A stretch of 64,000 nucleotides of DNA from an uncultured Dehalococcoidales bacterium (GTDB taxonomy: Bacteria; Chloroflexota; Dehalococcoidia; GIF9; UBA5629): assembly GCA_964400675.1 (NCBI GenBank), contig CAYNVO010000003.1:42576-106575 (forward strand). The letters are read 5' to 3'. The notes under the pieces were generated by a model, which searched no databases, was not told the DNA's origin, and worked only from the letters and a program-made list of their open reading frames with translations. Made by a program: the position numbers and the translations under genes. The first letter of the stretch is position 1. Every line of letters starts with the position of its first letter. Below, in pieces: positions 36,680-52,053 of this stretch.

Positions 36680-36732
36680 GTGAAAGCTAAGAAACTCAAC
36701 AAACTCAATAACACGGATAAAATGAGGTTAAA

Positions 36733-37956
36733 GTGAGTTTGAAGAACAAGAACGTATTCATCACTGGTATAAGCGGCTTTGTCGGTTCAAACATGGCAAA
36801 GCATCTTCTCAATGAAGGGGCCAATGTTTTTGGGCTGGTTAGAAGACGGGCTGATGGCACTATCCCGCAAAACATTAGATATCTGGGAATTGAGAACGAG
36901 GTAGCCCTTGTGGAGGGCGATATGCGGGATATTTCCAGTATTGCTTCCGCATTAGACATCAGCAAACCTGACATTGTCTTTCATCTCGCCGCTCAGTCTT
37001 TCATTCCCAGGTCGTTTTCATGCCCCGGAGAGACGATGGAAGTAAACTGTCTGGGGACAGCCAATCTCCTTGAGGCGATTAGAAATAAAAGCTTGGATGC
37101 AGTAACAGTTTTCGCAGGAAGCAGCGAAGAGTATGGCCTTGTATTCCTTTCGGATTCTCAGTATCAGCAAATCAAGAAAAAACACGGCACGATTTTCCCG
37201 GAGCCGATCAGTATCCCTGAATTGCCTATCACTGAGACCAATCCTCTCCGCCCCATGTCTCCCTATGCTGTCAGCAAGGTCTACGCCGACTATCTAACCA
37301 GAAACTATCATACTTGTTATGGATTGAAAACAATAGTCTCTAGGGGCTTCAATCAGGAAGGGGCCGGCCGAGGCAGTATGTTTGTAACTTCGTCGATTAC
37401 TCGGCAGGCGATGCAATACAAGCGTGGTGAAATCGATAAGCTAGTCATAGGCAATGTTAATGCCTTCAGGGATTGGTCTCATGTCAATGATATTCTGAAG
37501 GGGTACTGCCTGCTGGCTGAGAAAGGCAGATATGGAGACGTTTACAACCAGGGCTCGCAGAGGACCAACTCGGTGCTTAGCTATCTCTTGCTTAGTTTGG
37601 AATGTGCTGGATATGCGGTGAATAGGATTGAAACGCTTGGTGGCAAGAAAGTGGTAGATAATCCCAACGAATTGGATAGCTCAAAGATGTTCGGGCTTGG
37701 CTTTGAAAAGACCAGGGTGGATAAGCTGATGCTAGAAGGTAAATTGGAATTCCAGCTTTCGGATACAGGAATTATTGTCATTACCGATAAGGATAAAATA
37801 GCTGTAGAATTTGATGAAGAAAGGTTCAGGCCAGCTGAAGTACCGATTTTATTAACCAGGACTGCAAAAATGGAGGAGCTTGGCTTTAAAACGCAGCGCA
37901 GCCTTAAAGATATAATTAATGACCAATTGAATTATTTCCTGGATCCAGCTCGCTAG
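36733..37956 (+). CDS. NAD-dependent sugar-nucleotide epimerase/dehydratase (GDP-mannose 4,6-dehydratase-like) with a C-terminal extension.
   Basis: VFITGISGFVGSNMAKHL Rossmann motif, SxxYAxSK region (SPYAVSKVYAD). 407 aa. Confidence 0.65.
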   Translation: MSLKNKNVFITGISGFVGSNMAKHLLNEGANVFGLVRRRADGTIPQNIRYLGIENEVALVEGDMRDISSIASALDISKPDIVFHLAAQSFIPRSFSCPGETMEVNCLGTANLLEAIRNKSLDAVTVFAGSSEEYGLVFLSDSQYQQIKKKHGTIFPEPISIPELPITETNPLRPMSPYAVSKVYADYLTRNYHTCYGLKTIVSRGFNQEGAGRGSMFVTSSITRQAMQYKRGEIDKLVIGNVNAFRDWSHVNDILKGYCLLAEKGRYGDVYNQGSQRTNSVLSYLLLSLECAGYAVNRIETLGGKKVVDNPNELDSSKMFGLGFEKTRVDKLMLEGKLEFQLSDTGIIVITDKDKIAVEFDEERFRPAEVPILLTRTAKMEELGFKTQRSLKDIINDQLNYFLDPAR

Positions 37957-38059
37957 CAAGGCAAACTGATTGTTCGCATGAACTATCAGAGTCGCCTCGT
38001 TATGCCGCGGCGTTGAAACACGATTGGTACTCAGTGAGGCGTTAGTGTAGTATAGGATT

Positions 38060-39184
38060 GTGCAGATGAAGATTGCTGTAATTGTGGGTACACGCCCCGA
38101 GATAATTAAGATGGCTCCGATAGTAAGAGAGCTTGAGAACAATAGAGTAAACTACTTCATCCTTCATACCGGTCAACATTATTCGTATAACCTGGATAGG
38201 GTCTTTTTTGAACAGCTAAGATTACAAGATGCTAAATATAACTTAGAGGTCGGCTCCGGCTCTCATGCAGAACAAACAGGAAAAATACTTATAGGCGTGG
38301 AAAAAACTCTTGAAATTGAAAAGCCTGATATTGTTCTAGTTGAGGGTGACACTAACTCTGTGTTTGCTGGTGCACTGGCAGCAGTTAAGCTCCATATATC
38401 AGTTGGGCATGTCGAGGCTGGGCTGCGAAGTTATGACAGGCAGATGCCCGAGGAAATCAATCGTATTCTGACTGACCATTGCTCCGATTACCTGTTCGCT
38501 CCAACGGAGAAGGCAAAGGCAATCCTCCTCGGCGAGGGCATCCACAACGACAAGATATTTGTAACTGGCAATACCATAGTTGACGCTGTCTACCAAAACC
38601 TAGAAATAGCTAAAAGAAGTTCAAAGTTAGGAAGTTCTAAGTTCGAGGTTAAATACACAACTTCAAACGTAGAACATAGAACCTTGAACCTTGAACCCGG
38701 AAGCTACTTCTTGGTAACCCTTCATCGGCAAGAGAATGTTGATAACCTGGCGAGATTGGCCTCAATCTTGGAGGGGTTAGATAGGGTGGCTTCTGAGTTT
38801 CGTATGCCTGTAATCTATCCCATCCATCCCCGCTCTCAGAAAATGATGGCCAAATTTGGCCATAAACCCCGAAATATTAAGCTAATTGAACCCACCGACT
38901 TCCTGAGTTTTCTCCAGCTTGAGAGCAGTGCCAGGCTTATACTGACCGACTCTGGAGGAGTTCAGGAGGAAGCTTGCATACTCAAAGTCCCCTGTGTTAC
39001 TTTGAGAGACAATACTGAGAGGCCGGAAACCATTGAGGTCGGCGCTAATATACTAGCTGGTGCATCTTCAGATAAAATACTTGATTGTGTCAAGAGTATG
39101 ATTAGCCAAAAAAACAAATGGGCAAATCCATTTGGTGATGGCAAAGCAGGAGAAAGAATAGTAGAAATTATAACAGGAGATTAA
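38060..39184 (+). CDS. wecB: UDP-N-acetylglucosamine 2-epimerase (non-hydrolysing).
   Basis: MKIAVIVGTRPEIIKMAPIV, HVEAGLRSYD, DSGGVQEEA blocks. Contains an in-frame heptamer-repeat tract (38633..38697) in a linker region. Confidence 0.85.
   Translation: MQMKIAVIVGTRPEIIKMAPIVRELENNRVNYFILHTGQHYSYNLDRVFFEQLRLQDAKYNLEVGSGSHAEQTGKILIGVEKTLEIEKPDIVLVEGDTNSVFAGALAAVKLHISVGHVEAGLRSYDRQMPEEINRILTDHCSDYLFAPTEKAKAILLGEGIHNDKIFVTGNTIVDAVYQNLEIAKRSSKLGSSKFEVKYTTSNVEHRTLNLEPGSYFLVTLHRQENVDNLARLASILEGLDRVASEFRMPVIYPIHPRSQKMMAKFGHKPRNIKLIEPTDFLSFLQLESSARLILTDSGGVQEEACILKVPCVTLRDNTERPETIEVGANILAGASSDKILDCVKSMISQKNKWANPFGDGKAGERIVEIITGD
38633..38697. repeat. Inverted pair of GAACCTA-family heptamer arrays (MITE-like) lying in-frame inside wecB.
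   Basis: GTTCTAAGTTCGAGGTT ...25 nt... GTAGAACATAGAACCTTGAACCTTGAACC. Encodes SSKFEVKYTTSNVEHRTLNLEP in a variable WecB linker. Confidence 0.55.
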
Positions 39185-39186
39185 CT

Positions 39187-40110
39187 ATGGCTAAGATATT
39201 AGTTACTGGCGGCAAGGGATTTATTGGCTCAAACCTCGTTCCTGAATTAAACGAACGGGGACACGAAGTCTGGGTATGCGACTTGGGTCATTCAGAGTCC
39301 CCAAACTACACCCGCTGCGATGTTACCGAATACCGCCAGCTTGAGAGAATATTTGAACACCACGACTTTGATTTTGTCTATCATCTGGCGGCAGAATATG
39401 GCCGCTGGAACGGCGAGGACTATTATGAGAACCTGTGGCTGACCAATGTGATAGGTACTAAGAATATGCTTCGGATTCAGGAGCAGAAGAAGTTCCGCAT
39501 GATATTCTTTTCCAGTGCCGAGGTCTATGGAGACTATGACGGTGTAATGAGTGAAGACGTGATGGACAAAATACCCATAAAGCAAATGAACGACTACGCT
39601 ATAACTAAATGGGCAGGAGAGCTACAATGCTTGAACTCTCAAGCCATGTTCGGCACGGAGACTGTCAGGGTTAGACCGGTCAATGCTTACGGTCCGCACG
39701 AGCATTATAGTTCTTACCGCGGTGTAATCCCGGCTTTCATTTACAAGGCTCTGCATGATGAGCCATATACAGTTTATCAGGGGCACAAGCGCATCTTCGA
39801 TTATGTAGAAGATACCTGTCGCACCTTCGCCAACATTGTAGATAACTTCATACCCGGCGAAGTTTATAACATCGGAGGCAAAGAGGAGTGGGAACACGAT
39901 ATCAAATATGTTTCCGACCTGATATTAAAAAATCTGGGCAAAACTGATGCCAAAGTCAACTATAAGGAAGCAGAACCGTTTACCACACGCTTCAAGCACA
40001 TGGACTTCTCCAAATCCAGGAGAGACCTTAAGCACGCCCCCAAGGTTCCGCTGGAGGACGGAATCCCCAAAACTATTGAATGGATGCGCAAAGCCTACGG
40101 ATTTAAGTAG
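39187..40110 (+). CDS. NAD-dependent epimerase/dehydratase.
   Basis: ILVTGGKGFIGSNLV Rossmann motif and YAITK (YxxxK). Confidence 0.75.
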   Translation: MAKILVTGGKGFIGSNLVPELNERGHEVWVCDLGHSESPNYTRCDVTEYRQLERIFEHHDFDFVYHLAAEYGRWNGEDYYENLWLTNVIGTKNMLRIQEQKKFRMIFFSSAEVYGDYDGVMSEDVMDKIPIKQMNDYAITKWAGELQCLNSQAMFGTETVRVRPVNAYGPHEHYSSYRGVIPAFIYKALHDEPYTVYQGHKRIFDYVEDTCRTFANIVDNFIPGEVYNIGGKEEWEHDIKYVSDLILKNLGKTDAKVNYKEAEPFTTRFKHMDFSKSRRDLKHAPKVPLEDGIPKTIEWMRKAYGFK

Positions 40111-40119
40111 CCCAAGCCA

Positions 40120-40140
40120 AACCTTGATATAACCTAGAAC
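40120..40140. repeat. Heptamer-repeat tract (AACCTTGATATAACCTAGAAC).
   Basis: GAACCTA-family units immediately upstream of the GT4 gene start. Confidence 0.4.
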
Positions 40141-40144
40141 TCTT

Positions 40145-41344
40145 ATGAAAATCCTTATCGTCCAGGAGAGCGATTGGCTCAAGAGAGGGCCGCACCAACA
40201 ACATCAGCTAGCAGACCGCCTTTCGCTTAGAGGTCACCAGGTTCGGATTATCGATTACGAGATTTTGTGGCGAGACCAAGACAAAAGGGAGCTTTATTGC
40301 AAACGACAGCTATTCGAAAATGTATTCAAGGTTAATCAAGGGGCGAAGGTCACCGTAATTCGTCCCGGCATAATCAAGATACCTCTCCTTGACTATGTTT
40401 CCATTGTTTTTACTCATCAAAGAGAAATAAACAGGCAAATCGAAGAGTTCAAGCCTGATGTCATTATTGGGTTTAGTATCCTGAATAGTTATCTGGCAGC
40501 AAAGGCAGCCAGGAGTAATGACATTCCCTTCATTTATTACTGGATAGACGTGCTGCACCGCTTGATACCATTTAAGCCTCTACAGTTCATTGGTGAGATA
40601 TTGGAGCACAAAACGCTAATGCAAGCGGACAGGACGCTGACAATCAATGACAAGCTTAAAGACTATGTTATCACTGCCGGTGCCGCAGCTAACAAAACTA
40701 GTGTAATCAGGGCCGGCATAGACGTGGAGCAGTTTAAGCCATCAGCTAGTATTAGCAATTTAAGGAAACAATATGGACTTAAGGAAACTGACATTGTATT
40801 GTTCTTCATGGGCTGGCTCTATCATTTCTCCGGTTTGAAAGAAGTGGCTCAGGAGTTAGCCAAAGAAACTAACAAGAACCTGAAATTGCTAATAGTCGGC
40901 GAAGGCGATGCCTTTGAAGACCTTAAGCGAATACGAAACAAATACAACTTGCAAGATAGGCTCATCTTAGCTGGACAGAAGCCGTATACAGATATGCCAG
41001 CCTTCATCTCTGCTGCCGATATATGCCTGTTACCGGCATATCCTTGGGAGAAAACAATGCATGACATAGTGCCTATTAAGTTGTATGAGTACATGGCTAT
41101 GAAGAAACCGGTGATAGCAACAAGACTGCCCGGAGTTATGAAAGAATTTGGTAAAAACAACGGCGTAGTCTATGTGAGTAAACCTGAGGATGCCATTGAT
41201 AAAGCCAAAAGCCTTGTCAAAGATGGTAAAATAGGAGAGCTTGGCGATAAAGCCAGGAAATTTGTCCAAAAATACAGCTGGGATAGTATAACCGACGGAT
41301 TTGAGAAAATTCTAGAAGAAGTTGTGATGAGTTCTAGGTTCTAA
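40145..41344 (+). CDS. Family 4 (GT-B) glycosyltransferase.
   Basis: 399 aa, GT-B architecture. The C-terminus runs into the heptamer array (...MSSRF*). Confidence 0.7.
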   Translation: MKILIVQESDWLKRGPHQQHQLADRLSLRGHQVRIIDYEILWRDQDKRELYCKRQLFENVFKVNQGAKVTVIRPGIIKIPLLDYVSIVFTHQREINRQIEEFKPDVIIGFSILNSYLAAKAARSNDIPFIYYWIDVLHRLIPFKPLQFIGEILEHKTLMQADRTLTINDKLKDYVITAGAAANKTSVIRAGIDVEQFKPSASISNLRKQYGLKETDIVLFFMGWLYHFSGLKEVAQELAKETNKNLKLLIVGEGDAFEDLKRIRNKYNLQDRLILAGQKPYTDMPAFISAADICLLPAYPWEKTMHDIVPIKLYEYMAMKKPVIATRLPGVMKEFGKNNGVVYVSKPEDAIDKAKSLVKDGKIGELGDKARKFVQKYSWDSITDGFEKILEEVVMSSRF

Positions 41345-41385
41345 GCCAAGGGGTTCTAGGTTAAGAAGTTCTAAGTTCTAGGTAG
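41329..41385. repeat. Heptamer array, GTTCTAG orientation (GTTCTAGGTTCTAAG...GGTTCTAGGTT...GTTCTAAGTTCTAGGTAG).
   Basis: Inverted relative to the array at 41763..41782. The two together bracket the four-helix-bundle gene. Confidence 0.6.
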
Positions 41386-41396
41386 AATATTGAGTA

Positions 41397-41765
41397 ATGA
41401 AAATCGAAAGATTTGAGGACATCGAAGCTTGGAAAGAGGCTCGAAATTTGGTTAGCATGATTTACGATATTTCAAATGAAGAGCTATTTTCAAAAGATTT
41501 CAGCCTGAGGAATCAAGTCCGGGGGGCTTCGGTCTCCGTAATGTCCAACATTGCCGAGGGATTTGATAGGGGGACAAATAGAGAATTCATACAATTCCTC
41601 ATAGTAGCCAGAGCTTCCGCTTCTGAAGTAAAAAGCCAGTTATATGTAGCCTTGGACCGCAACTACATTCATCAAAATAAGTTTGATAAAGTATACCAGC
41701 AAGCAACGAAAGCCATAAGTCTTATTGACGTGTTCATCCGTTACTTGAAAAAACCCAGAACGTAG
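41397..41765 (+). CDS. Four-helix-bundle protein of the 23S-rRNA-intervening-sequence protein family (TIGR02436/PF05635-like).
   Basis: IEAWKEARNLVSMIY...VMSNIAEGFDRGTNREFIQFL..ARASASEVKSQL matches the family core. 122 aa. Confidence 0.75.
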   Translation: MKIERFEDIEAWKEARNLVSMIYDISNEELFSKDFSLRNQVRGASVSVMSNIAEGFDRGTNREFIQFLIVARASASEVKSQLYVALDRNYIHQNKFDKVYQQATKAISLIDVFIRYLKKPRT

Positions 41766-41782
41766 AACCTAGAACCTAGAAC
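41763..41782. repeat. Heptamer array, CTAGAAC orientation (TAGAACCTAGAACCTAGAAC).
   Basis: Perfect 7-bp tandem units. Overlaps the stop of the four-helix-bundle gene and precedes the RBS of the next gene. Confidence 0.6.
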
Positions 41783-41796
41783 GAAGAAGGAGCAAA

Positions 41797-42795
41797 ATGA
41801 GTCAACATATGAGCGAATATAAGGGTAAGAATATCCTCATCACCGGCGGGGCTGGCTGCATTGGCAGCAATCTGACTAAAGCTCTAATAGAAGCCGAAGC
41901 AGGCAAAATAATCGTCCTTGACGACCTTTCAGCGGCTGAAAAATGGAACGTCCCCGTTGACCCAAAGGTGATATTTATCGAGGGCAGCGTATTGGATGAA
42001 GAAGCAGTAAAGAGAGCGTTCTCTGCAAAGCTTGATTTCGTCTTCCATCTGGCAGCTCACTTCGCCAATCAGAATTCAGTTGATAATCCTGAGACCGACC
42101 TCGAGGTCAACGGTCTCGGCACACTCAAGGTTCTGGAATACTCTCACCTTGCCAAGGTAAGCAAGTTTGTCTTTGCATCTTCAGGCTGCTCAGTTTACGG
42201 CAGCCAGGCGCCTCTCCCCCTGAAAGAGGATTACGTATCGCTGCATCTCGACACTCCCTATCAAATCACCAAGCTTCTCGGCGAGCTTTACTGCAATTTC
42301 TTCCACAATTATTATGGGCTGCCTGTAGCTATAGCCCGATACTTCAATGTTTATGGTCCCGGTGAAATCCCCGGTGCTTACCGTAACGTCATTCCCAATT
42401 TCATGTGGTGGGCATTACACAAAATGCCCCTACCTGTGACTGGCACAGGAGCGGAAACCAGAGATTTCACCTATGTTGAAGACATAGTTGACGGCACGTT
42501 ACGACTTGGGGCAATATCTCAGGCTGTGGGTGATGCCTTTAACCTCGCGTCAGAAACAGAAACCAAGGTAATTGATATAGCTAATATGGTTAATGAGATA
42601 ACGGGAAATCCGTCAGGTGTTACCTTTAAACCTCGCCGCGACTGGGACCAGATTACGCGCCGGAAAGCCTCTATAGAAAAAGCCAGGAAAGTTCTCGGTT
42701 ATGAGCCAGGAACAAAAATAAAAGACGGAGTCAAGAAAGTGTATGAGTGGGTTGTAGCCAATCGTGATAAAATTGAGGAATGTGCCAGATTTTAA
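41797..42795 (+). CDS. NAD-dependent epimerase/dehydratase (UDP-sugar 4-epimerase / decarboxylase-like).
   Basis: ILITGGAGCIGSNL and YQITK. The C-terminus ...KIKDGVKKVYEWVVANRDKIEECARF has a paralogous remnant at 49922..49996. Confidence 0.75.
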   Translation: MSQHMSEYKGKNILITGGAGCIGSNLTKALIEAEAGKIIVLDDLSAAEKWNVPVDPKVIFIEGSVLDEEAVKRAFSAKLDFVFHLAAHFANQNSVDNPETDLEVNGLGTLKVLEYSHLAKVSKFVFASSGCSVYGSQAPLPLKEDYVSLHLDTPYQITKLLGELYCNFFHNYYGLPVAIARYFNVYGPGEIPGAYRNVIPNFMWWALHKMPLPVTGTGAETRDFTYVEDIVDGTLRLGAISQAVGDAFNLASETETKVIDIANMVNEITGNPSGVTFKPRRDWDQITRRKASIEKARKVLGYEPGTKIKDGVKKVYEWVVANRDKIEECARF

Positions 42796-42885
42796 TCTCT
42801 CGAAGTATGCAGGGCAGACAAACGCAGGGTTGCCGCAAATTAATTTTACATAAAATAACGATGCCTATATTTTCTTCAATCCGGC

Positions 42886-43308
42886 TTAATATCCTGTTCT
42901 AACAATCAAGAAACAGCCAACAACCACGAAGGCAATCCCTATCCAATGCAATATAGTTATACTTTCTTTCAAATAAATCAAGGCAAATATCGCTGTTAAT
43001 ACATAGGCCAAGCTCATCAGGGGGTAAATAAAGCTGACATTTAGAGTTGACATTGCACCAAGCCACAGGACTAATGCGATTCCGTAGCATAATATCCCGG
43101 CAATGATACGGGGGTTGGTGAATATTCTGGAGAGTGTATCAAGGTTGAAGAGCTGCCCCATACTTTTGATTTCTCCGACTTGATTCACACCACTTTTCAT
43201 CAGGATTTGTCCCATTGCCGCACCGAATATGCAGAGCAACACCAATAGTAGAGCAAACAACATAGCACTCCTTTTCTTGAACCTTGGTAGCCCAAATTTT
43301 CTTTTCAA
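42886..43308 (-). CDS. EamA/SMR-like four-TM membrane protein (ArnE/ArnF-like polyprenyl-sugar flippase subunit candidate).
   Basis: 140 aa, four predicted TM helices. Lies in the glycan cluster. Confidence 0.55.
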   Translation of the reverse strand: MKRKFGLPRFKKRSAMLFALLLVLLCIFGAAMGQILMKSGVNQVGEIKSMGQLFNLDTLSRIFTNPRIIAGILCYGIALVLWLGAMSTLNVSFIYPLMSLAYVLTAIFALIYLKESITILHWIGIAFVVVGCFLIVRTGY

Positions 43309-43393
43309 TTTTTACCCAGCAGTGTAGATTTTCTTACCGTTAAATCAGAGCTTGATATTAGGCATGCCAGCTCCTTAATGTCAATAATATAGG

Positions 43394-44293
43394 TTATGCC
43401 TTTTTAGCTAACAATTTGATCTCATATTGCATATTAAAAAGCTTGGCAAAAAAATACATTACCCCTATTAACATTTTCGTGCCCCAGTTCCATCTCAGGT
43501 TCTGCAAGGGTATTTCACTCTTTCCAAGGTAAATGACCTCAAATCCTGTCTCACGAAGCATTTGCGTTAGTGTCTGTTTGGAAAAATGAGTGATATGATA
43601 GATTGGATGTACTAACTTAATAGGTTTTTTCAACTTCCCGCCTGTGATTTTGTACAAAATGTCAGCCAGTCTAGGAATAAGGCTATTCTCGTCTACTGTC
43701 AAAATAAACAATAATCCATTGTCTTTCAGTATCCGTAGGCACTCTTCCAAGATTTGCCTGGGATTTGGGACATGTTCAATGGTATCCCACATTGTAACAA
43801 CATCAAAGTATGCTGATGGGAAATTAATGTCTTGCAATTCTTTTGTGTCCACTTTAATTCCAAATTTCTCCTTGGCATAGTTTGATGCATATTCCGAAAT
43901 ATCCACTCCGTATGGCTCCCAACCTTTGTTTTTTGCCATATCCAGAAAAACGCCTGTGGCACAACCGACATCCAATATTCTCCCCGCTTCCTTAGAGGAC
44001 ATTATAAGAGCTAATCCCTGTTGGAAGTTGGCTAATCTGGGCTCTTCTTTATACTTGGCATAGTCCTCGTGGCACTTTGAAAAAAATTTGACTTGGAACT
44101 CTTCGAAGTACTCGGCAGAATATAATTCTACAAGATTAATGTATAGCGGCTCAGTAAACACAAGGTGGCAATTGCGGCATTTTAATATATTGTATTCTCT
44201 CAGTTCATAAAGCCGAGAAATATCTTGTGAGTCACACAGTTGGCATTTAACATCGTTAAATTTATCAGGCTCTTTATAAGTATCCTCTGACAA
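43394..44293 (-). CDS. Class I SAM-dependent methyltransferase with an N-terminal Cx2C-Cx2C zinc ribbon.
   Basis: KCQLCDS...CRNCH ribbon. Motif I LDVGCATGVFLD. Confidence 0.75.
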   Translation of the reverse strand: MSEDTYKEPDKFNDVKCQLCDSQDISRLYELREYNILKCRNCHLVFTEPLYINLVELYSAEYFEEFQVKFFSKCHEDYAKYKEEPRLANFQQGLALIMSSKEAGRILDVGCATGVFLDMAKNKGWEPYGVDISEYASNYAKEKFGIKVDTKELQDINFPSAYFDVVTMWDTIEHVPNPRQILEECLRILKDNGLLFILTVDENSLIPRLADILYKITGGKLKKPIKLVHPIYHITHFSKQTLTQMLRETGFEVIYLGKSEIPLQNLRWNWGTKMLIGVMYFFAKLFNMQYEIKLLAKKA

Positions 44294-44336
44294 GATGATT
44301 ACCTGCCTAATAATTCATTAGTTCGAGCTTTTGATG

Positions 44337-45287
44337 CTATTTGTTGCAGTGCATACGGAACCAGTTGATAGTATTTTTCAATCCATCCTCAAGGTTGACT
44401 GAAGGCTGCCACCCTAGAATTTCCTTGGCTTTAGTATTATCACAAAAATGGTGCCATGCTTCTCCAGGCCGATAATCTAATGCCCCTACTCGCGGTTTTA
44501 GTGAGCTCTCCATTAAACGCAAAACCATTTCCACAACATCTATAATCTTGTACTCTAATCCATTGCCAATGTTTATTATTTCACCAATAGCACGTGGCGT
44601 AACTGAAGCTTTTATGTAAGCCTCAACGATATCATCAACATAATTGAATTCTCTTGTCTGCTCCCCCTTGGTCATTTCAAATTCCTCATCCATGATAGTC
44701 TTTTTAATGAGCGATGGAATCAGCAAGCTGCCTTCCTGCCCAGGTCCATAAGTCAGAAATGGCCTCAAAGTAATAATAGGTGCTCCATGCGTTTTGTGTA
44801 ACATCTGGCAAAAAGCAGTGGCAGATACCTTAGAAGCAGAGTATGGAGAAGAAGGATTAGGAATTTGATCTTCGCGGAACGGAGCAGGATTGTCACCATA
44901 ATCTTCAGAAGCCCCGGTATTTATAAAGCAATCGTAATTAATCCAATTTAAAGCTCGTAAAAGGTTAAGTGTTCCTCTTAAATTTACCTCTACCATCTCG
45001 TCAATTAGTTCTGGGGAGCGGGTGGTAGCAACGTATGCAGCGAGGTGAAATATTTTCTGCGGTTTGATAACAGCAATAACTGTTCTTATAGTTGTAAAAT
45101 CTCTTATATCACTATGATGAATGATAATCTCATTGCTTATATCTCCAAGCCTCCAAAGATTGGAACCAGCTCTGGCTAAACCATGCACCTCAGCACCTTC
45201 TCTCACCAGTCTTCTAGCCAAATGGGAACCTATAAAACCAGAGACGCCGGTAACCAGCACCTTGGTATTCCTCAATGTTTCAGTCAT
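44337..45287 (-). CDS. NAD-dependent epimerase/dehydratase.
   Basis: [18 protein letters not shown] and YSASK. Confidence 0.75.
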
Positions 45288-45634
45288 TTAACCTTGCCCT
45301 GGGCTTTAAAAAATTCTTGATACCAAGCGATGGTTTCCGTCAGTCCCTCTTCGACTGTATATTTGGGTCTCCAGCCCAGAACATCCCGGGCTTTCTGAGC
45401 TGAAAGATATTGGTGTTTTATCGCTCCTTTGGGTGTATTGAGTATCTCGGGTTGCAAGTCTGTTCTTTTCATCAGTTCAAGTATCGTTTGAACGATCTGA
45501 AGGACGCTCATCTGGGTCTCGTTACTGAAATTGAATGCCTCCCCGCAGATACTTGCATCATCCATTTTTTCCGCCAACAAAAGATATGCATCTACAGCAT
45601 TTAAAATAATAAGGCATTGACTTTTCACTTGCAA
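45284..45634 (-). pseudogene. C-terminal fragment of a CDP-/NDP-hexose 4,6-dehydratase-type epimerase. The N-terminal ~230 aa are absent.
   Basis: The 116-aa ORF aligns only to the C-terminal third of SDR epimerase/dehydratases (GEAFNFS...[17 protein letters not shown]). A TTG/alternative start is used, an in-frame TAA lies just upstream, and there is no room for an N-terminus before the next gene. Confidence 0.5.
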
Positions 45635-45657
45635 ATTTGATGCGCGCGTTCTTATAT

Positions 45658-46365
45658 TTAAAAGCCCCTTATTTTATATTTTAATATATTCCCCAAGAAT
45701 TCGAAAAAAGTCACCGGACTAACACTTGATTTGCCTTCCTTTCTACGTTCAAAAGCAACAGGTATCTCACCCACTTTTAATCCCAAACGGTTCGATTTAA
45801 TCATTATTTCAGCATCAAGAAACCAATCTTTGCAAGTGAGTTGCAATCCCTCATAGGCTTCGCGACTCATAATTTTGGGAGACCGGTTTACATCTCTGCT
45901 TTGCACAGGGAAGAAAACGGGGAGAATTAAATTGTACACTCTGGATTGAATCCTTCTTAATATGGAGACTTCGTTGCTGCCCCGCTTGGCCTTGCACAGA
46001 TCCAGTTTTTCTTCCACCAATTTTTTGAATATTCTTACTACGTCTTCTGCCTTTATCTGTCCGTCTCCAGGTGAAAAACCTAAATATTCACCTCTAGCTT
46101 TCTTAAGACCGCATATTATCCCCCACCCGTAGCCTTCATTTACGGGCACATTTACCACCGTTATTTCTTTATTGGAGCTCGCCAACCTTTGTAAAATCTC
46201 CGGTGTCCCATCAGTGGACCCGTTATTGACAAGTACTAGTTCTAACAAAACTCCGTTGGCTTTAAACCCACGCATTAGGTCCAATGCGACATGTTCAACA
46301 ACCCTCTCCTCATTGTAAAGAGGCACTATCAGAGACAAGAGCAAACCACTCCTCTCTTTTACCAC
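45658..46365 (-). CDS. Family 2 glycosyltransferase (Dpm1/GtrB-like).
   Basis: [11 protein letters not shown]...[10 protein letters not shown]. Confidence 0.75.
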
Positions 46366-46439
46366 TGAGCAATTTACCTCAAACCATAATTACATTAGCA
46401 AACTGGCAGCCCAGTCTGGTCGCAAATAAAAGCACCCTC

Positions 46440-47081
46440 TCATTTCTGACAAACATAAAGAATTCTGGCAAAAAATGGAATTGGCGACCTTATAATTTTG
46501 AATTTATATCCGATACTCGCCAAAAGAATTTGCCAGTCATAAGGCTTGCGGAAATGACTTTTTTCACGGTTTAGAAACATGTCGACCCAATAACTTGTAT
46601 GTAATGGTTCAGCAGTCGGGTCAATTTCGGCAATGAGCAATGTGCCGCCTTTCTCCAAGCTCGAAAAAATGTTTTCTAAGGTGAGCTGCTGTTCCGCCGG
46701 TTTAAGGTGATGCAGAAAATCCACCATCACAGCGCCGCTACAGGGTAGCAAATCGCATTCTATGGCATTCTTCAATGTGAAGCCGATATTTCCCCGTTTA
46801 CCCACCGTTTTCGAGGCGATTCCAATTCTTCTTTGGTCAAGGTCAATGCCGATGACCTTTCTTGCAGGAAAGCGCAAGGCCAGGTAATTTGACAATAGAC
46901 CGTAACCGCAGCCGATGTCAAATATTACACCGCGCTGAGGCAAAAAGTCTGAATATTCGTCGAAGTTCAGGAATTTTGTTCTGACCTTAACATAAAGCTT
47001 GACACATATCCCCTGCCCAGCATACAAGTCGGCAAGCTTACTATACAAATTATTTGGCATTTCGTTTCTCCGCCAGCGCAA
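46440..47081 (-). CDS. Class I SAM-dependent methyltransferase.
   Basis: Motif I VIFDIGCGYGLLSNYLA...VIGIDLD. Confidence 0.7.
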   Translation of the reverse strand: MRWRRNEMPNNLYSKLADLYAGQGICVKLYVKVRTKFLNFDEYSDFLPQRGVIFDIGCGYGLLSNYLALRFPARKVIGIDLDQRRIGIASKTVGKRGNIGFTLKNAIECDLLPCSGAVMVDFLHHLKPAEQQLTLENIFSSLEKGGTLLIAEIDPTAEPLHTSYWVDMFLNREKSHFRKPYDWQILLASIGYKFKIIRSPIPFFARILYVCQK

Positions 47082-47952
47082 TCAATGAGGCTCCAAAAGG
47101 CAAGGAGAAGTACCTTATCAGCCAGGTCTCAAGTCTGGTTAGCTGCAGGAATGTTTCGTTAATTACGGGGATTGTTTTAACCTCGATAGCTTCATCTATG
47201 GTACGGTTAATATTTCTCTTATCAAAGAGTCTGTTGCTCATTCTAATGGCAGCCAACACCGGGAAAAGTGATGACACGTAATATGATATTTTCTTGATCG
47301 AGAACCCGCTGCGCTGAAGTTTAGTAGCCAGTTCCGATTTATCATATCTACGTACGTGGTTTGCTATTCTATCATGGTGACTCCAGAGAAATCTATGAGC
47401 AGGAACGGTCAGAATCAAATATCCTGCAGGCTTTAAGGCTCGATTAATTTCTCTAAGCGCCGCTTCATCATCGCTGATATGCTCCAGCACATCGAACACC
47501 CCTATAATGTCCCAGTTATTAAGGAAGGGCAAAGAGAGTATGTCTGCTTGGTACAAATCAACAGATGAAGACCTTTGCCGGCAAAATCTCAGCCCCTCCA
47601 TTAGAATATCCATGCCCGCTATATTGATGCCGCTGCTTTTCAAATGCACCAGGACACTCCCATTGCCACAACCGATTTCAAGCATTACGGAGCTGGCTAA
47701 ATCAGGTACATTTCTTCTTAGAACATCAAGGATCAATTCTCGTCTTCCGACCTGCCAGAAGTGTTTCTGCTCCATTTTGAAAAGGAATTCAAATATTTCA
47801 GGGTCAAAACTATCGACCTTTCTCCCTTTCTCTACAAATGAAGGAATGCCGTCAACTACAGGGTAATGGATATGGCAGGCACGGCAAAAATATTTATCGC
47901 TGCTCTTCTCTAGTGCGCTGCGACATTTAGGGCAATACAACACCTGCTGCAT
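47050..47952 (-). CDS. Class I SAM-dependent methyltransferase with an N-terminal Trm112-like zinc ribbon.
   Basis: CPKCRS...CRACH ribbon. Motif I LEIGCGNGSVLVHL. Confidence 0.7.
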   Translation of the reverse strand: MQQVLYCPKCRSALEKSSDKYFCRACHIHYPVVDGIPSFVEKGRKVDSFDPEIFEFLFKMEQKHFWQVGRRELILDVLRRNVPDLASSVMLEIGCGNGSVLVHLKSSGINIAGMDILMEGLRFCRQRSSSVDLYQADILSLPFLNNWDIIGVFDVLEHISDDEAALREINRALKPAGYLILTVPAHRFLWSHHDRIANHVRRYDKSELATKLQRSGFSIKKISYYVSSLFPVLAAIRMSNRLFDKRNINRTIDEAIEVKTIPVINETFLQLTRLETWLIRYFSLPFGASLIALAEKRNAK

Positions 47953-48383
47953 AGGAATTACTCGCCGGCAATTATCTGTCTTCCGAAGGAATACTCGTAA
48001 ACCTTGTAAAATTGATAGTTTTTCTCAGAGTCAAGGGCTATTGTCCTCACTAGCGCGCCAGACATGACATGGGACACTAATTCTGTATAGCTCCAAGTAT
48101 ACCCCATGTTAAGATCTTTACACAATCGTATTTCATACCGCCAACAGCCTTCAAGCCGCTAGAACAAAGGCTCCTCTTACGTTATTGTAGTAACAGCTTA
48201 TTGACCTCTTATGATATAATTTTGCCCATATTAGGTTGCTGAAATTTACATCGCTAATACCTGTGGCATCGGGAATCAAATGACGGTCTTACATGAGTAC
48301 TTTTGGGGGTAGCATCTCAGTCTATCGTTGGCCAGACAATCAAGCGGTCTTACTTGTCATGAGGAGCCAAGAAGGCCAAATCA

Positions 48384-49922
48384 ATGAAACTACTTGATAG
48401 AATCAAATCAAACAAATCCCTAATCCTTATCCTTTGTCTTATATTTGTCTTGGCTCTGGGTGTTAGGGTGGGCATACTATGTAATACCTACGATGTACAC
48501 CCCGCTAATATTGTACTTGGAATGACCCAAGCAAAAATATTAGTCGAGGGGCTGGAATCCCTTACTGAAGCGAATGAGTTTCAAGGTGCTCTTTCCTCCT
48601 TAGGTATGACTATTGGTTCGTTTTGGGGACATTCTATGCAAAACGCTGTGATGCTAGCCGGGACTTATTGGGTTTTCGGAGAATACGACCCTATTTGTGT
48701 ACGGGTAATTTGGTTAATCATTGATTCCTTCGGTTGCCTCCTGATGTTCTTAATTGGGAAGGAATTGTTCAGCAGGAGAATTGGATTAATCGCAGCCTTT
48801 TTATATGCTATATGGTTACCTATTGCATATTTATCCACCTGGATGTTCTACTATAATTTGATGCCATTTATAACATTGCTTTCTCTGTACTTCTTTATAA
48901 AGGCAGTACGAACGGGGGCGATAAAGTTTTATGTCCTATCAGCTCTCTCTATTGGAATTGGTTGTTACTATTCACCAATTATTATGTTTTTGCCATTGAT
49001 GTTCGGTCTGGCTTTGTTCATATACAACCTTGGGAAATCAAATTTCCGAAAACAGGTTGCTAATGTAGCTAAAATGACTGCTGTTATGGTGGCAGTAGTC
49101 TTTCTAATTATATCCCCAACCTGGGGTATAATTCATTATATAAGGCCTGAGCTTAAGGATTTTACTATGAGAGGAGGCATCCTTTGGGGCGGTATGTGGG
49201 AAGGCTTTGGGGAGTTTGGGGAAAACCCGGTTGGAGCTGTGTTCAATGATTATGTAACTTATGACCAGGTAACAAAAGAGTGGGGCTACGATTCTGTAAC
49301 TTATAACCAAGAAAAAGGAGAGTGGGAATACGAGGTGGAAATGTGGGGCCCTGAATACGATGAGATATTTAAGCCACGGGTGTTAGACGCCATAAGAGAA
49401 CATCCGGCGTGGTGGCTGAGCCTCCTGGCCAGGAGAGTTCCCCACAGCATAGTCTATACCAGCCAGCTTGGAATACAATATTACCCTCGAGACGCGGAGG
49501 GTAATCGTATAGAGAGGAAATGTCAATATCCGACTATTGGCCCCATTATTGCAATGATAAAGGGTGGTACATTTTGGGAATTTGTTAAAAGTTGTCCTTA
49601 CGCTGCTTTTTATACGGGACTTATGTATCTGTTTGCCGTTGTGCCTGTTTTGCTTAGCGTCGTTGGTATCTGGGTTATGAGAAAGAACTGGAGACCATTG
49701 ATTTTGGTAGCGGCGGCTTCAATATACTTTGCTGCCGTTCACATAGTTATGTTTGTTTCCTCATATAAAAGCATGGTGGCGGGAAATTTGGCCTATATTA
49801 TTTTCAGTGCCATTGCCCTGGATTATATCTATAGAAGAATACGGGGTGCCGACATCAGAACTGACGAATTAGCTACGCCATCAACAGGAAAGCCATCGGC
49901 TATAGTCCGAAGACAAAAATAA
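48384..49922 (+). CDS. Polytopic GT-C fold glycosyltransferase (GT39/GT83 PMT_2-like).
   Basis: 512 aa with more than 10 TM helices and a PMT_2-like N-terminal region. The 3' end (...RRQK*) runs into sequence homologous to the epimerase C-terminus, so this looks like a recombination junction. Confidence 0.5.
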   Translation: MKLLDRIKSNKSLILILCLIFVLALGVRVGILCNTYDVHPANIVLGMTQAKILVEGLESLTEANEFQGALSSLGMTIGSFWGHSMQNAVMLAGTYWVFGEYDPICVRVIWLIIDSFGCLLMFLIGKELFSRRIGLIAAFLYAIWLPIAYLSTWMFYYNLMPFITLLSLYFFIKAVRTGAIKFYVLSALSIGIGCYYSPIIMFLPLMFGLALFIYNLGKSNFRKQVANVAKMTAVMVAVVFLIISPTWGIIHYIRPELKDFTMRGGILWGGMWEGFGEFGENPVGAVFNDYVTYDQVTKEWGYDSVTYNQEKGEWEYEVEMWGPEYDEIFKPRVLDAIREHPAWWLSLLARRVPHSIVYTSQLGIQYYPRDAEGNRIERKCQYPTIGPIIAMIKGGTFWEFVKSCPYAAFYTGLMYLFAVVPVLLSVVGIWVMRKNWRPLILVAAASIYFAAVHIVMFVSSYKSMVAGNLAYIIFSAIALDYIYRRIRGADIRTDELATPSTGKPSAIVRRQK

Positions 49923-49996
49923 AAGACGGCATCACGGAGGTTCACCGGTGGGTAAAGTCAAACTGGGACAAGATAGAAGAGTGCGCCAGATTTTAG
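49922..49996 (+). pseudogene. 25-codon C-terminal remnant of an epimerase paralogous to 41797..42795.
   Basis: Encodes KDGITEVHRWVKSNWDKIEECARF*, compared with KIKDGVKKVYEWVVANRDKIEECARF* at the end of 41797..42795. Identical 17-mer ACAAAAATAAAAGACGG at both loci (42705..42730 and 49913..49929). Confidence 0.55.
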
Positions 49997-50060
49997 GCTA
50001 AGGGAAAAACAATTGTGATTTTGTCATACGTGCGAGGAGCCATTCAGCAGAAGGACGACG

Positions 50061-50133
50061 TGGCAATCTCACAGTCGAGGGCGCATCAGTGAGATTGCTT
50101 CGCTCCGCTCGCAATGACAGTTTGAGCTACGGA
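50061..50133. repeat. Small repeat element with a 10-bp perfect inverted repeat (GCAATCTCAC-16 nt-GTGAGATTGC) and a CTGTCATTGCGAGCGGAGCGAAGCAATCTC core on the minus strand. Flanked by GGACGAC direct repeats.
   Basis: Same core as the 10.7-kb array. GGACGAC at 50053-50059 and 50131-50137 could be a target-site duplication. Confidence 0.5.
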
Positions 50134-50153
50134 CGACATCTAAAGGAGAACAG

Positions 50154-51233
50154 ATGACAGATAAGCTTAAAGTTGCCATAGTGGGTTGTGGTGCTGTAGC
50201 CGAAAAGCGCCATATTCCCGGTTTCGCCAGATTGAAAGACAGGGTTGCTGTGCGGGCTGTATGTGATAAAAATGAAGAATTGGCAAGACAAGTCGCTTTG
50301 AGACATCGAATTCCCAGAGTTTTTGTTAGCCAGACAGAGATGCTCAAGGCTGAAAAAGTCGACATAGTTGACGTCTGCACTCCACCTCAGATACACGCTC
50401 CCATAGCAGTTGAAGCGCTTGAAGCCGGTTGCCATGTGCTGATGGAAAAGCCCATGGCACTTAATACTGCTGACTGTGACAAAATGATAGAGGCAGCAAC
50501 AAAGAACAACCGCAAACTTTGCGTTGTTCATAACGTGCTTTTTCATCCCCCGCTTATCAAAGCCAGGGAGCTGGTCAAAGCGGGAGCCATAGGCAACTTC
50601 ATAGGTATGAGAATCCTATTATCAGACCCCAAAGACGAAATGATAATGCGCCAGGACTACTGGATACACAAGCTGCCCGGTGGATTGATTGGTGAAACCG
50701 GCCCTCACCCTGTTTACGTCTCCCTGGCTTTTCTGGATAAGGTTAATAACGTAGAAGTATTTGCCAAAAATTACCTGGAGCATCCCTGGGCACCTTTTGA
50801 TGAGTTCAGGCTCGAACTTGATGCTGATAATGGCATGAGCTCAGTGGCTATCTCATATTCCGGTGAACGATATGCTGCGGAGGTAGAGATATTCGGCTCA
50901 GAAGGTGCTCTTTATATAGACCTCCAGAGCATGCTGCTGGTGAAACACGGCACTAAGAAAACGCTCAGTTCTGCTAAGTTAGTCTCAACATCTTTCAGTA
51001 CGGTAACGCAAATTATCGGCGGTCTCATAGCCAACGGGTTCAAGACAACCACTGGCCAGTTCAGAGTGGGACATGAAAAAATAGTGGAGCTATTTGTCGA
51101 TAGCATTATTAAAGATACCACTCCGCCTGTTACAGGTGAAGAAGGGCGGGAAGTTATAAGGGTAATGGAGATGATAGTTGACAGGCTTTATGGCAAATAC
51201 GGTCGCCCTCAACCATCTGAACCTAGAACCTAG
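50154..51233 (+). CDS. Gfo/Idh/MocA family NAD(P)-dependent sugar oxidoreductase.
   Basis: VAIVGCGAVAEKRHIPGF Rossmann N-terminus, EKP motif (LMEKPMA). The C-terminus ends inside the heptamer array. Confidence 0.8.
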   Translation: MTDKLKVAIVGCGAVAEKRHIPGFARLKDRVAVRAVCDKNEELARQVALRHRIPRVFVSQTEMLKAEKVDIVDVCTPPQIHAPIAVEALEAGCHVLMEKPMALNTADCDKMIEAATKNNRKLCVVHNVLFHPPLIKARELVKAGAIGNFIGMRILLSDPKDEMIMRQDYWIHKLPGGLIGETGPHPVYVSLAFLDKVNNVEVFAKNYLEHPWAPFDEFRLELDADNGMSSVAISYSGERYAAEVEIFGSEGALYIDLQSMLLVKHGTKKTLSSAKLVSTSFSTVTQIIGGLIANGFKTTTGQFRVGHEKIVELFVDSIIKDTTPPVTGEEGREVIRVMEMIVDRLYGKYGRPQPSEPRT

Positions 51234-51258
51234 AACTTAGAACCTAGAACTTTGAAAC
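51219..51258. repeat. Heptamer array GAACCTAGAACCTAGAACTTAGAACCTAGAACTTTGAAAC.
   Basis: About 5.5 tandem 7-bp units spanning the stop of the oxidoreductase and the start region of the methyltransferase. Confidence 0.6.
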
Positions 51259-51260
51259 AG

Positions 51261-52037
51261 ATGCTACAAAAAGAAAAGGGACCGGTCCAGCAGTTCTGGG
51301 ACGCAACTCCCTGTGGGACTGGCGATATCAAAATTGAGCCTGAGACACTTGAATACTTTGAGGCTATATCGGAAAGACGTAACAAACTGGAACCCTTTAT
51401 CGCTGACTATGCCCAGTTTAATAGATGGGCAGGTAAAAGAGTACTTGAGATGGGATGTGGTGCAGGGAGTGACCTGCTACGCTTTGCTAAAGCAGGTGCC
51501 CGTATCACGGGCGTAGATTTATCACCACGCTCGGCTTCACTGGCAAAGACCAGACTGAGCATTTATGATTGTCAGGGTAATGTGCTAGTAGCCGATGTCG
51601 AACAATTGCCTTTTAAAACAGATTCATTCGACCTGGTTTATTCCTGGGGAGTCTTGCATCACACGCCAGATACCGAACAAGCCATTAGAGAGGTGTACCG
51701 GGTGGCCAAGCCAGGCAGTGAGATTTGCATTATGCTCTACCACAGGCACTCGCTGGTCGCTCTGCAAATGTATCTCATGTACGGACTTTTTGCTTTTAAG
51801 CCTTTGAGAGGCTTGAAAGACATACTTGCCAATCACCATGAAAGCCCTGGCACAAAAGCCTATACTGTAACCGAGGCTCAGCAGATGTTCTCGGTATTTA
51901 AAGACGTGAAAATCAAGGTCTGTCTCACTCCTTACGACCTACGTTATAAAAGAAACAAATACTTCCCCCGATGGGTTGGTAAACTTATCCCACAGCGCCT
52001 CGGATGGTTCATGGTCATCCGAGGGCAAAAGTCTTGA
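51261..52037 (+). CDS. Class I SAM-dependent methyltransferase.
   Basis: Motif I VLEMGCGAGSDLLRFA...VDLSP. Start set at ATG 51261. The ORF-track TTG 51252 lies within the heptamer array. Confidence 0.7.
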   Translation: MLQKEKGPVQQFWDATPCGTGDIKIEPETLEYFEAISERRNKLEPFIADYAQFNRWAGKRVLEMGCGAGSDLLRFAKAGARITGVDLSPRSASLAKTRLSIYDCQGNVLVADVEQLPFKTDSFDLVYSWGVLHHTPDTEQAIREVYRVAKPGSEICIMLYHRHSLVALQMYLMYGLFAFKPLRGLKDILANHHESPGTKAYTVTEAQQMFSVFKDVKIKVCLTPYDLRYKRNKYFPRWVGKLIPQRLGWFMVIRGQKS

Positions 52038-52053
52038 TGGAGGTTTGGCTAAG

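Follow-up and report, generated by a model that had tools for sequence, protein, structure and literature searches.

Inverted heptamer arrays around a PF05635 four-helix-bundle gene in a Dehalococcoidales glycan operon and at related loci in other bacterial phyla

A 64,000-nucleotide (nt) stretch from an uncultured Dehalococcoidales bacterium (contig CAYNVO010000003.1, positions 42,576–106,575; hereafter the window, in whose numbering coordinates are given) carries short tandem arrays of a GAACCTA-type heptamer among its glycan genes. The closest named relatives of the window are Dehalococcoidia/Chloroflexota metagenome-assembled genomes (MAGs), and its sequence is also found within the 220-kb contig Ga0268285_1000005 of a Joint Genome Institute (JGI) metagenome (JGI 3300028167). 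The arrays are present in four states: a full cassette (41329–41785), in which two inverted arrays, or arms, enclose a small gene of the PF05635 family; a gene-less hairpin that lies in frame inside wecB; a single five-unit arm; and a decayed arm. The initial annotation, which listed five array sites, overlooked both the inverted pairing of the arrays and the PF05635 gene between sites 3 and 4.

The full cassette sits between the GT4 and the epimerase genes, outside 23S rRNA. Its left (upstream) arm, at 41329–41385, is built of about seven GAACYTA-type heptamers on the minus strand (TAGGTTC/TAAGTTC on the plus strand) and doubles as the last codons and the stop of the GT4 gene, whose product ends …MSSRF. 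This is site 3 of the initial annotation, where an array is indeed present, lying on the opposite strand and interrupted by two 1-nt phase slips. The right (downstream) arm, at 41751–41785 on the plus strand, contains exactly five heptamers (AAACCCA GAACGTA GAACCTA GAACCTA GAACGAA) and corresponds to site 4. It supplies the …PRT and the stop of the enclosed gene, whose terminal residues are …KKPRT, and continues into GAAGGAG, the ribosome-binding site that serves the following gene (ATG at 41797). The stretch 41368–41383 of the left arm is 94% complementary to 41767–41782 of the right arm over 16 nt, and the minimum-energy fold predicted for 41310–41800 pairs both arms around the open reading frame (ORF). 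The cassette has terminal inverted repeats, as in a transposon or a miniature inverted-repeat transposable element (MITE).

The cargo in the loop of the cassette is a four-helix-bundle gene of 122 aa (41397–41765, plus strand) that belongs to the S23p/Avd family (PF05635 23S_rRNA_IVP, TIGR02436). The protein matches PF05635 with an E value of 8e-31 and 106.8 bits (cutoff 33.8) and TIGR02436 with 102.5 bits (cutoff 24). Its AlphaFold2 model is composed of four helices (pLDDT 95.9), and a Foldseek comparison of this model gave TM values of 0.88 to 2GSC, 0.8 to 2RLD and 0.75 to Avd (4DWL); the 2GSC and 2RLD structures contain five chains each. The C-terminal tails of four-helix proteins lengthen in steps of 7 aa, each ending in …RT and a stop, and, as the unit period is seven and the codon period three, the TAG comes back into the reading frame every 21 nt.

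Scans of the window against shuffled sequences confirmed that the heptamer repeats are real and placed all the significant runs at sites that had been named in the initial annotation. With up to two mismatches allowed, GAACCTAGAACCTA had 10 matches in the 64-kb window against 0.37 expected, and 0 of 100 shuffles reached 10; all these matches fall at 38672–38692, 41328–41341, 41758–41785 and 51219–51253. Exact period-7 GAAC runs of at least three units were found three times in the window and not at all in the shuffles. Period-7 [AG]AC runs of at least four units were also found three times, against 0.11 in shuffles, at 38658–38699 (six units), 41751–41785 (five) and 51219–51253 (five), and were absent from the remaining ~51 kb of the window and from a further 16 kb of its contig. 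An Rfam scan of 37500–52500 at E values up to 1 gave zero matches, and terminator- and promoter-like sites occurred at shuffle level, with no terminator-like site inside any array.

Site 2 (about 40118–40143), at the junction of the epimerase-307 and GT4 genes, has just two to three degenerate units and is non-significant alone; its status as an array rests on a related species, whose orthologous junction has seven units. This decayed single arm (40118–40143, plus strand) reads AAACCTT GATATAACCTA GAACTCT and is followed by an ATG at 40145. Site 5, at the GFO/methyltransferase junction, is a single plus-type arm of exactly five heptamers (51219–51253, plus strand), which gives the GFO product its terminal …SEPRT. 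Together with the end of the GT4 gene, this bears out the original statement that arrays overlap stop codons. The TTG at 51252, which had been taken as the start of the next gene, is probably not used as such, gene callers choosing the ATG at 51261.

The wecB gene (38060–39184) carries the gene-less hairpin in frame. This empty hairpin (38617–38699, plus strand) consists of a minus-type arm of five units (38617–38652), about 6 nt, and a plus-type arm at 38658–38699 on the plus strand (CAACTTC AAACGTA GAACATA GAACCTT GAACCTT GAACCCG), which counts as six units in the [AG]AC scan, five of these being the GAAC-type units of the initial annotation. The hairpin has a predicted energy of −21.1 kcal/mol (z −1.9) and encodes an extra loop, …SSKLGSSKFEVKYTTSNVEHRTLNLEPG. 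It is a palindromic repeat in frame in a conserved protein, absent from most orthologs: in the comparison of linker lengths that the initial annotation had proposed, the insert is missing from 98 of 121 orthologs, and what had been described as a stand-alone 22-aa linker turned out to be a loop 15 aa longer than in those 98. Some of the orthologs form a sub-clade with loop inserts of +8 to +22 aa, including 7-aa expansions and a fourfold repeat of ERRTSNI, a motif that corresponds to three heptamers read in frame. Compared with the M. jannaschii enzyme (4NEQ), one loop of WecB has about 12–14 additional residues.

The same operon is found in a sister species (L163–L170, ~87–90% nt identity), where the junctions differ. 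At the GT4/epimerase junction, which is filled with the gene in the window, L163 has an empty hairpin, its reverse arm joined directly to the forward arm; the GlmS/GT2 junction, empty in the window, holds in L163 a different cassette (38% protein identity) with TAGAGAT/ATCTCTA arms. The site 2 junction has ~2 units in the window, seven in L163 and none in L171 and L182, and the site 5 junction has five units in the window and seven in L163; in L171 it is a hairpin with both arms. The sister species also has one more array, downstream of its epimerase gene. Both cassettes are present in L182 and one in L185, neither of which has the wecB insert. The four-helix gene is 94% identical in nucleotides between the window and L182, compared with 78–80% for the genes on either side, a difference that points to recent exchange of the cassette. 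We therefore observe filled and empty versions of the same junction, discordance between cassette and flanks, and a unit number that changes over evolutionary time, as seen at sites 2 and 5 relative to L163 and L171 and in the WecB inserts of +8 to +22 aa; this part of the original proposal stands. A rule of one unit per genome was considered and rejected, L163 having both GAACCTA arrays and the TAGAGAT-armed cassette.

The epimerase and GFO genes, adjacent in the sister species, are separated in the window by a ~7-kb block (~42800–50000) that contains mostly minus-strand methyltransferase/glycosyltransferase genes and a PMT_2 gene. At the far edge of this block, 49901–49996 encodes …KIKDGITEVHRWVKSNWDKIEECARF before a stop, a duplicate remnant of the epimerase C-terminus. 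Within the PMT_2-family gene there is a 42-nt tandem repeat (49248–49333; two copies, 79% match), which encodes a repeated …YVTYxQ..KEWxY motif.

Relatives of the 122-aa protein (49–79% identity) were surveyed at 80 genome and 80 metagenome loci, picked by similarity to this one protein (at least about 49% identity) and mostly coming from metagenome assemblies, in Verrucomicrobia, Gamma- and Deltaproteobacteria, Planctomycetes, Acidobacteria, Ignavibacteria, Spirochaetes, Nitrospirae and other phyla. The metagenome loci do not include the strain of the window and were not informative on variation within its population. In the 80 genome loci, period-7 AAC runs occur at 3.04 per kb within 160 nt of the gene and at 0.09 per kb elsewhere, a ~34-fold enrichment, and they are strongly polarized, with 33 on the minus and 2 on the plus strand upstream, and 39 on the plus and 3 on the minus strand downstream. 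Tandem Repeats Finder detected one or more arrays in all 149 of the 160 loci for which both flanks were available, on both sides in 126, period 7 being by far the commonest. In 71 of 84 two-sided loci the arms are inverted, as judged by a downstream unit that is nearer to the reverse complement of its upstream counterpart. The unit consensus is N-R-A-C-Y-Y-N, the last three positions varying between lineages (GAACCTT, GGACTTT, CGACCCG, CAACTCG and others); its rotation was picked to maximize AC, so that the signal, 91% observed against ~36% by chance, arises partly by construction. The distribution of arm lengths peaks sharply at five units upstream as well as downstream of the gene, also when the loci are collapsed at 70% identity into 63 clusters, and the two arms mirror each other in the order of their unit variants (for example, in L045 and L018).

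In 1.17 Mb of sequence, pairs formed by a minus arm followed by a plus arm have spacers of 0–50 nt in 25 cases (empty hairpins, mostly with 5 + 5 units) and of 380–600 nt in 56, and the plus-then-minus arrangement never occurs with the arms less than 150 nt apart. A PF05635 gene is enclosed by 65 of the 66 arm pairs that lie more than 150 nt apart, 64 being identified by a tblastn match and one being divergent. More than half of the empty hairpins (13 of 25) fall in an ORF. The cassettes read in the direction of their neighbours (87 to 2 for the upstream gene, 78 to 8 for the downstream one). Among single arms, 25 are sense-oriented and 4 antisense, and the length peak is again at five units, with 21 of 54 arms. 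Cassettes were also found in cultured Riemerella and Nostoc plasmids, where the gene is annotated merely as ‘four helix bundle protein’, and array-flanked PF05635 genes adjoin genes as diverse as adenylylsulfate (APS) kinase, lepA/Fe-S genes and insertion sequence (IS) elements, among others. We thus observe one architecture that recurs across phyla with a fixed polarity of the arms and a mode of five units. Co-variation of protein and repeat unit was also tried as evidence of recognition and discarded, since it is expected from co-inheritance alone (Mantel rho −0.15, permutation standard deviation 0.035).

Several surveyed loci have further features. In the Dehalococcoidia MAG BLK6-1.bin.245 (L003), a 118-aa ORF (1893–2249) lies between two long GAACCTA arrays immediately upstream of the four-helix gene; it gave weak, below-cutoff matches to clan AA aspartic proteases and may be a second type of cargo. 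A contig from the same metagenome as the JGI copy of the window (L099, Ga0268285_1009074) contains at 1276–1732 a cassette with 58% protein identity and GAACRTA-type arms, whose neighbours are a small ORF (1030–1248), ribbon-helix-helix-like as judged by eye, and an ORF with a putative N-terminal P-loop like that of adenylylsulfate kinases. Seven loci from several phyla (L015, L019, L024, L025, L033, L087 and L088) have the cassette at the same spot between two conserved genes, the upstream one ending in …LTKGKDPAKVRIV.. before its stop and the downstream one containing …GIEFPSDEA…; a Phycisphaerae MAG and a Porticoccaceae MAG have one of these upstream flanks in identical form. Many of the contigs with close four-helix homologs (P0121–P0199) are just 0.5–2 kb long, as would happen if assembly stopped at the flanking arrays or if genomes held several copies of the cassette.

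The arrangement resembles the ORF-bearing intervening sequences (IVS) of 23S rRNA in Leptospira and Coxiella, with which it shares a terminal inverted-repeat stem and a PF05635 (S23p) ORF in the loop. In Coxiella burnetii, strains differ in the count of tandem GACAGAT heptamers that stand ahead of the S23p ORF of the IVS, and the first of these repeats is where RNase III cleaves (PMC4990558). The cassette of the window differs in lying between or inside protein-coding genes instead of in helix 9, 25 or 45 of 23S rRNA, in having heptamer arms of five units, or pentads, on both sides, and in having gene-less and single-arm derivatives scattered over the same operon; cutting by RNase III is putative here. 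Intergenic heptamer repeats are also known from other lineages. TAACTGA repeats of Beggiatoaceae, Cyanobacteria and Bacteroidetes lie in forward orientation just upstream of start codons, where ribosome-binding sites are rare (MacGregor 2015, PMC4679880); others include the short tandemly repeated repetitive (STRR) sequences of Calothrix and Anabaena, GGGAATC in Xanthomonas and GGGGAYT in Nostoc (Rehm 2015). They share with the arrays of the window tandem 7-nt units, typically four or five of them, the forward orientation near starts, frequent inverted pairs in Xanthomonas and length variation between close species, and TAACTGA fits the N-R-A-C consensus. The window arrays are distinguished from these classes by their link to PF05635 genes and by a defined cassette architecture; the heptamer-repeat papers (MacGregor 2015, Rehm 2015) report no link to a gene family and do not mention ‘23S’, ‘S23’ or ‘four helix’. 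A full-text literature search, with subscription journals outside its scope, found no paper tying PF05635 genes to heptamer arrays beyond the single Coxiella case, and none describing the array-flanked PF05635 cassette as a general rule; from its sequence, the element appears to be an IVS-like palindromic cassette outside rRNA.

On the protein side, PF05635 resembles Avd (PMC10053308), a pentameric, positively charged barrel ‘similar to S23 ribosomal proteins’ that contacts structured RNA (bioRxiv 10.1101/2023.10.23.563531). The 122-aa protein has the same fold as Avd of diversity-generating retroelements, with ~10% sequence identity; unlike in Avd systems, neither a reverse transcriptase nor a template/variable repeat pair is evident among the annotated genes of the window. 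The in-frame wecB hairpin, absent from orthologs, is also reminiscent of another class of elements. Rickettsia palindromic elements (RPE), like other palindromes of the MITE or repetitive extragenic palindromic (REP) type, are short and are found in frame at tolerated protein loops as well as between genes. In contrast to RPE, the window arms are tandem heptamers, not unique sequence, and the ‘autonomous’ form carries a small non-enzymatic protein and no transposase. A numerical analogy is offered by the ring protein TRAP, which wraps (G/U)AG RNA triplets, 11 repeats matching 11 subunits. For five heptamers and a pentamer, TRAP would serve as an analogy only, the fold being unrelated.

Taken together, these data make it probable, though by no means certain, that the arrays are the inverted arms of a small palindromic, IVS-like cassette that occurs with a PF05635 gene or gene-less and lives selfishly in operons. 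In this design, about five heptamers on the bottom strand are followed by a loop and by about five N-R-A-C-Y-Y-N heptamers on the top strand, the loop being either a few bases or a ~120-aa PF05635/TIGR02436 gene, and the whole stands in sense orientation within protein-coding operons. The cassette may be selfish or mobile and may be exchanged at its arms, which would also make its insertion into operons non-polar. The GAACCTA arms have stops in every frame, because the period of seven runs against the codon period of three, and they would end in an unstructured A/C-rich leader or in a ribosome-binding site for the next gene; the cassette may survive in operons because its arms combine these stops with such a leader or site. 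The five-unit arm could be a binding module of the cassette’s own protein, with one heptamer per subunit, an idea suggested by the five chains in which members of the family crystallize and by Avd being a pentameric RNA-binding barrel. The original suggestion that the heptamers are binding sites would survive in this changed form, the candidate binder being the protein of the cassette and no longer a regulator specific to the glycan cluster. In the transcript, the arms would pair into a stem that RNase III might cut, by analogy with the Coxiella IVS.

Several observations weigh against this proposal. The cassette contains no transposase or recombinase, its sole cargo being the 122-aa four-helix protein, and an alignment of wecB with insert-free orthologs, in which the flanks are diverged, reveals no target-site duplication. 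The GT4/epimerase cassette is syntenic across several species, so that its inheritance is mostly vertical. Because the surveyed loci were selected for their likeness to the 122-aa protein, the rule is not shown for the whole family. L003 is an exception, having four direct arrays of 8–17 units, one of them flanking another small gene, and the units of some cassettes do not contain RAC, such as TAGAGAT in L163 and GGGGAAA in Nostoc. The match between a pentamer and a five-unit arm may be no more than a numerical coincidence. When each upstream arm was aligned with the reverse complement of its downstream arm, the mismatches had no G-U wobble bias (150 G-U-compatible, 152 A-C-type transitions and 306 transversions), so that selection for a stem in the sense RNA is not detectable; a stem maintained by such selection was accordingly dropped as unsupported. 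Calculated duplex energies, with medians of −66 for cognate and −50 for non-cognate arm pairs, were set aside as implausibly large in both sets.

The arrays could instead be host RNA elements for operon expression, acting as RNase III stems or as A/C-rich, Shine-Dalgarno-independent leaders, with the four-helix gene incidental and its protein not recognizing them, which we regard as unlikely. The sense bias of single arms (25 to 4) and the co-orientation of cassettes with their neighbours are what such elements would display, sites 2 and 5 directly precede start codons that have no Shine-Dalgarno sequence, the TAACTGA repeats are likewise forward, upstream of starts and rarely accompanied by ribosome-binding sites (MacGregor 2015, PMC4679880), and the Coxiella IVS stem is cut by RNase III. 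However, the arms show no G-U bias, hairpins occur inside coding sequences too, neither a stem nor a leader needs an RAC core, a fixed 7-nt period or a five-unit mode across phyla, and 65 of 66 widely spaced arm pairs enclose a single gene family.

Functionless products of neutral polymerase slippage, linked to the gene by accident, are a very improbable origin. Unit number does vary between species, the L003 arrays reach 17 units, and heptameric repeats are over-represented in bacteria, for which slippage has been proposed according to work cited in PMC4692102. Slippage predicts neither the five-unit mode and the mirrored order of unit variants nor the fixed polarity or the ~34-fold enrichment near one gene family.

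The initial annotation had suggested phase-variable contingency repeats: within a population, tracts gaining or losing 7 nt would turn translational coupling on or off or exchange the C-termini of glycan enzymes. Seven is not divisible by three, and the units overlap stops and lie 0–10 nt from starts, so that a change of one unit would shift the frame or the spacing of signals; heptamer number differs among Coxiella strains, and two sister-species strains are unlike in a nearby period-9 array. The GAACCTA arrays themselves are constant. Three assemblies of the population of the window are identical except in an 18-nt repeat at 55.3–55.5 kb, and in eight sister-species assemblies (99.4–100% identical) every GAACCTA array is unchanged, the only indel being in the period-9 AAACTCAAY array at the GT2/epimerase junction, where L163 and L168 differ by 15 + 2 nt. 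Divergence within these three plus eight assemblies is at most 0.55%, and their near-clonality makes this a weak test. The tracts are in addition short (five units) and imperfect, and therefore a poor substrate for slippage, and in many phyla the element sits among genes unrelated to the cell surface. Phase variation by these arrays is thus unsupported, and we give it little credence.

Two other repeats of the window were noted in this comparison. The 18-nt tandem repeat (CACCACCAACAACCGGAA, 7.3 copies, 55314–55444) is coding and lies in a DUF2206-family gene, whose product has 846 aa in the window and 804 aa in ERZ27248954; the difference may reflect genuine variation in repeat number or a collapse during assembly. 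At the GT2/epimerase-407 junction (36691–36713) there is a short period-9 array, GAAACTCAAC AAACTCAAT AAC, and similar AAACYCAAY arrays flank PF05635 genes in L006, L010, L020, L026, L030, L040 and L182.

Operators for a transcription factor dedicated to the glycan cluster, also suggested originally, are scarcely credible: although in ~80 kb of contig the arrays are confined to a 13-kb glycan segment, as they are confined to the glycan segment in the sister species (21 kb read), the same design flanks PF05635 genes beside APS kinase, lepA/Fe-S genes and IS elements in many phyla, no regulator gene is linked to the cluster, and the arrays lie within genes or at 3′ ends and not at promoters, promoter-like matches being at chance level.

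The palindromic cassette with its PF05635 gene allows a broader conjecture, which we put forward as possible although doubtful. PF05635 proteins may recognize heptamer pentads by sequence, each subunit of the pentameric barrel holding one N-R-A-C-Y-Y-N unit, and the gene with its inverted pentads may be a mobile module that has seeded the STRR, TAACTGA, GGGAATC and GAACCTA repeats, including the 23S rRNA IVS and in-frame insertions.

Three puzzles have been handled separately: the excess of heptamer repeats in bacteria, the role of the ORF in 23S rRNA IVS, and the role of thousands of stand-alone Avd-like proteins. The data presented here set all three in one cross-phylum architecture, a pair of inverted arms, each of about five heptamers, that may or may not hold a PF05635 gene between them. 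For annotation, it is relevant that ordinary enzymes owe stop codons, C-terminal tails lengthened by 7 aa at a time and in-frame loop insertions to these arms. PF05635 four-helix-bundle proteins are very abundant, and it is their function outside diversity-generating retroelements that is the puzzle addressed here; the shared architecture makes the binding of five heptamers by a pentamer, cutting by RNase III and exchange at the arms directly testable.

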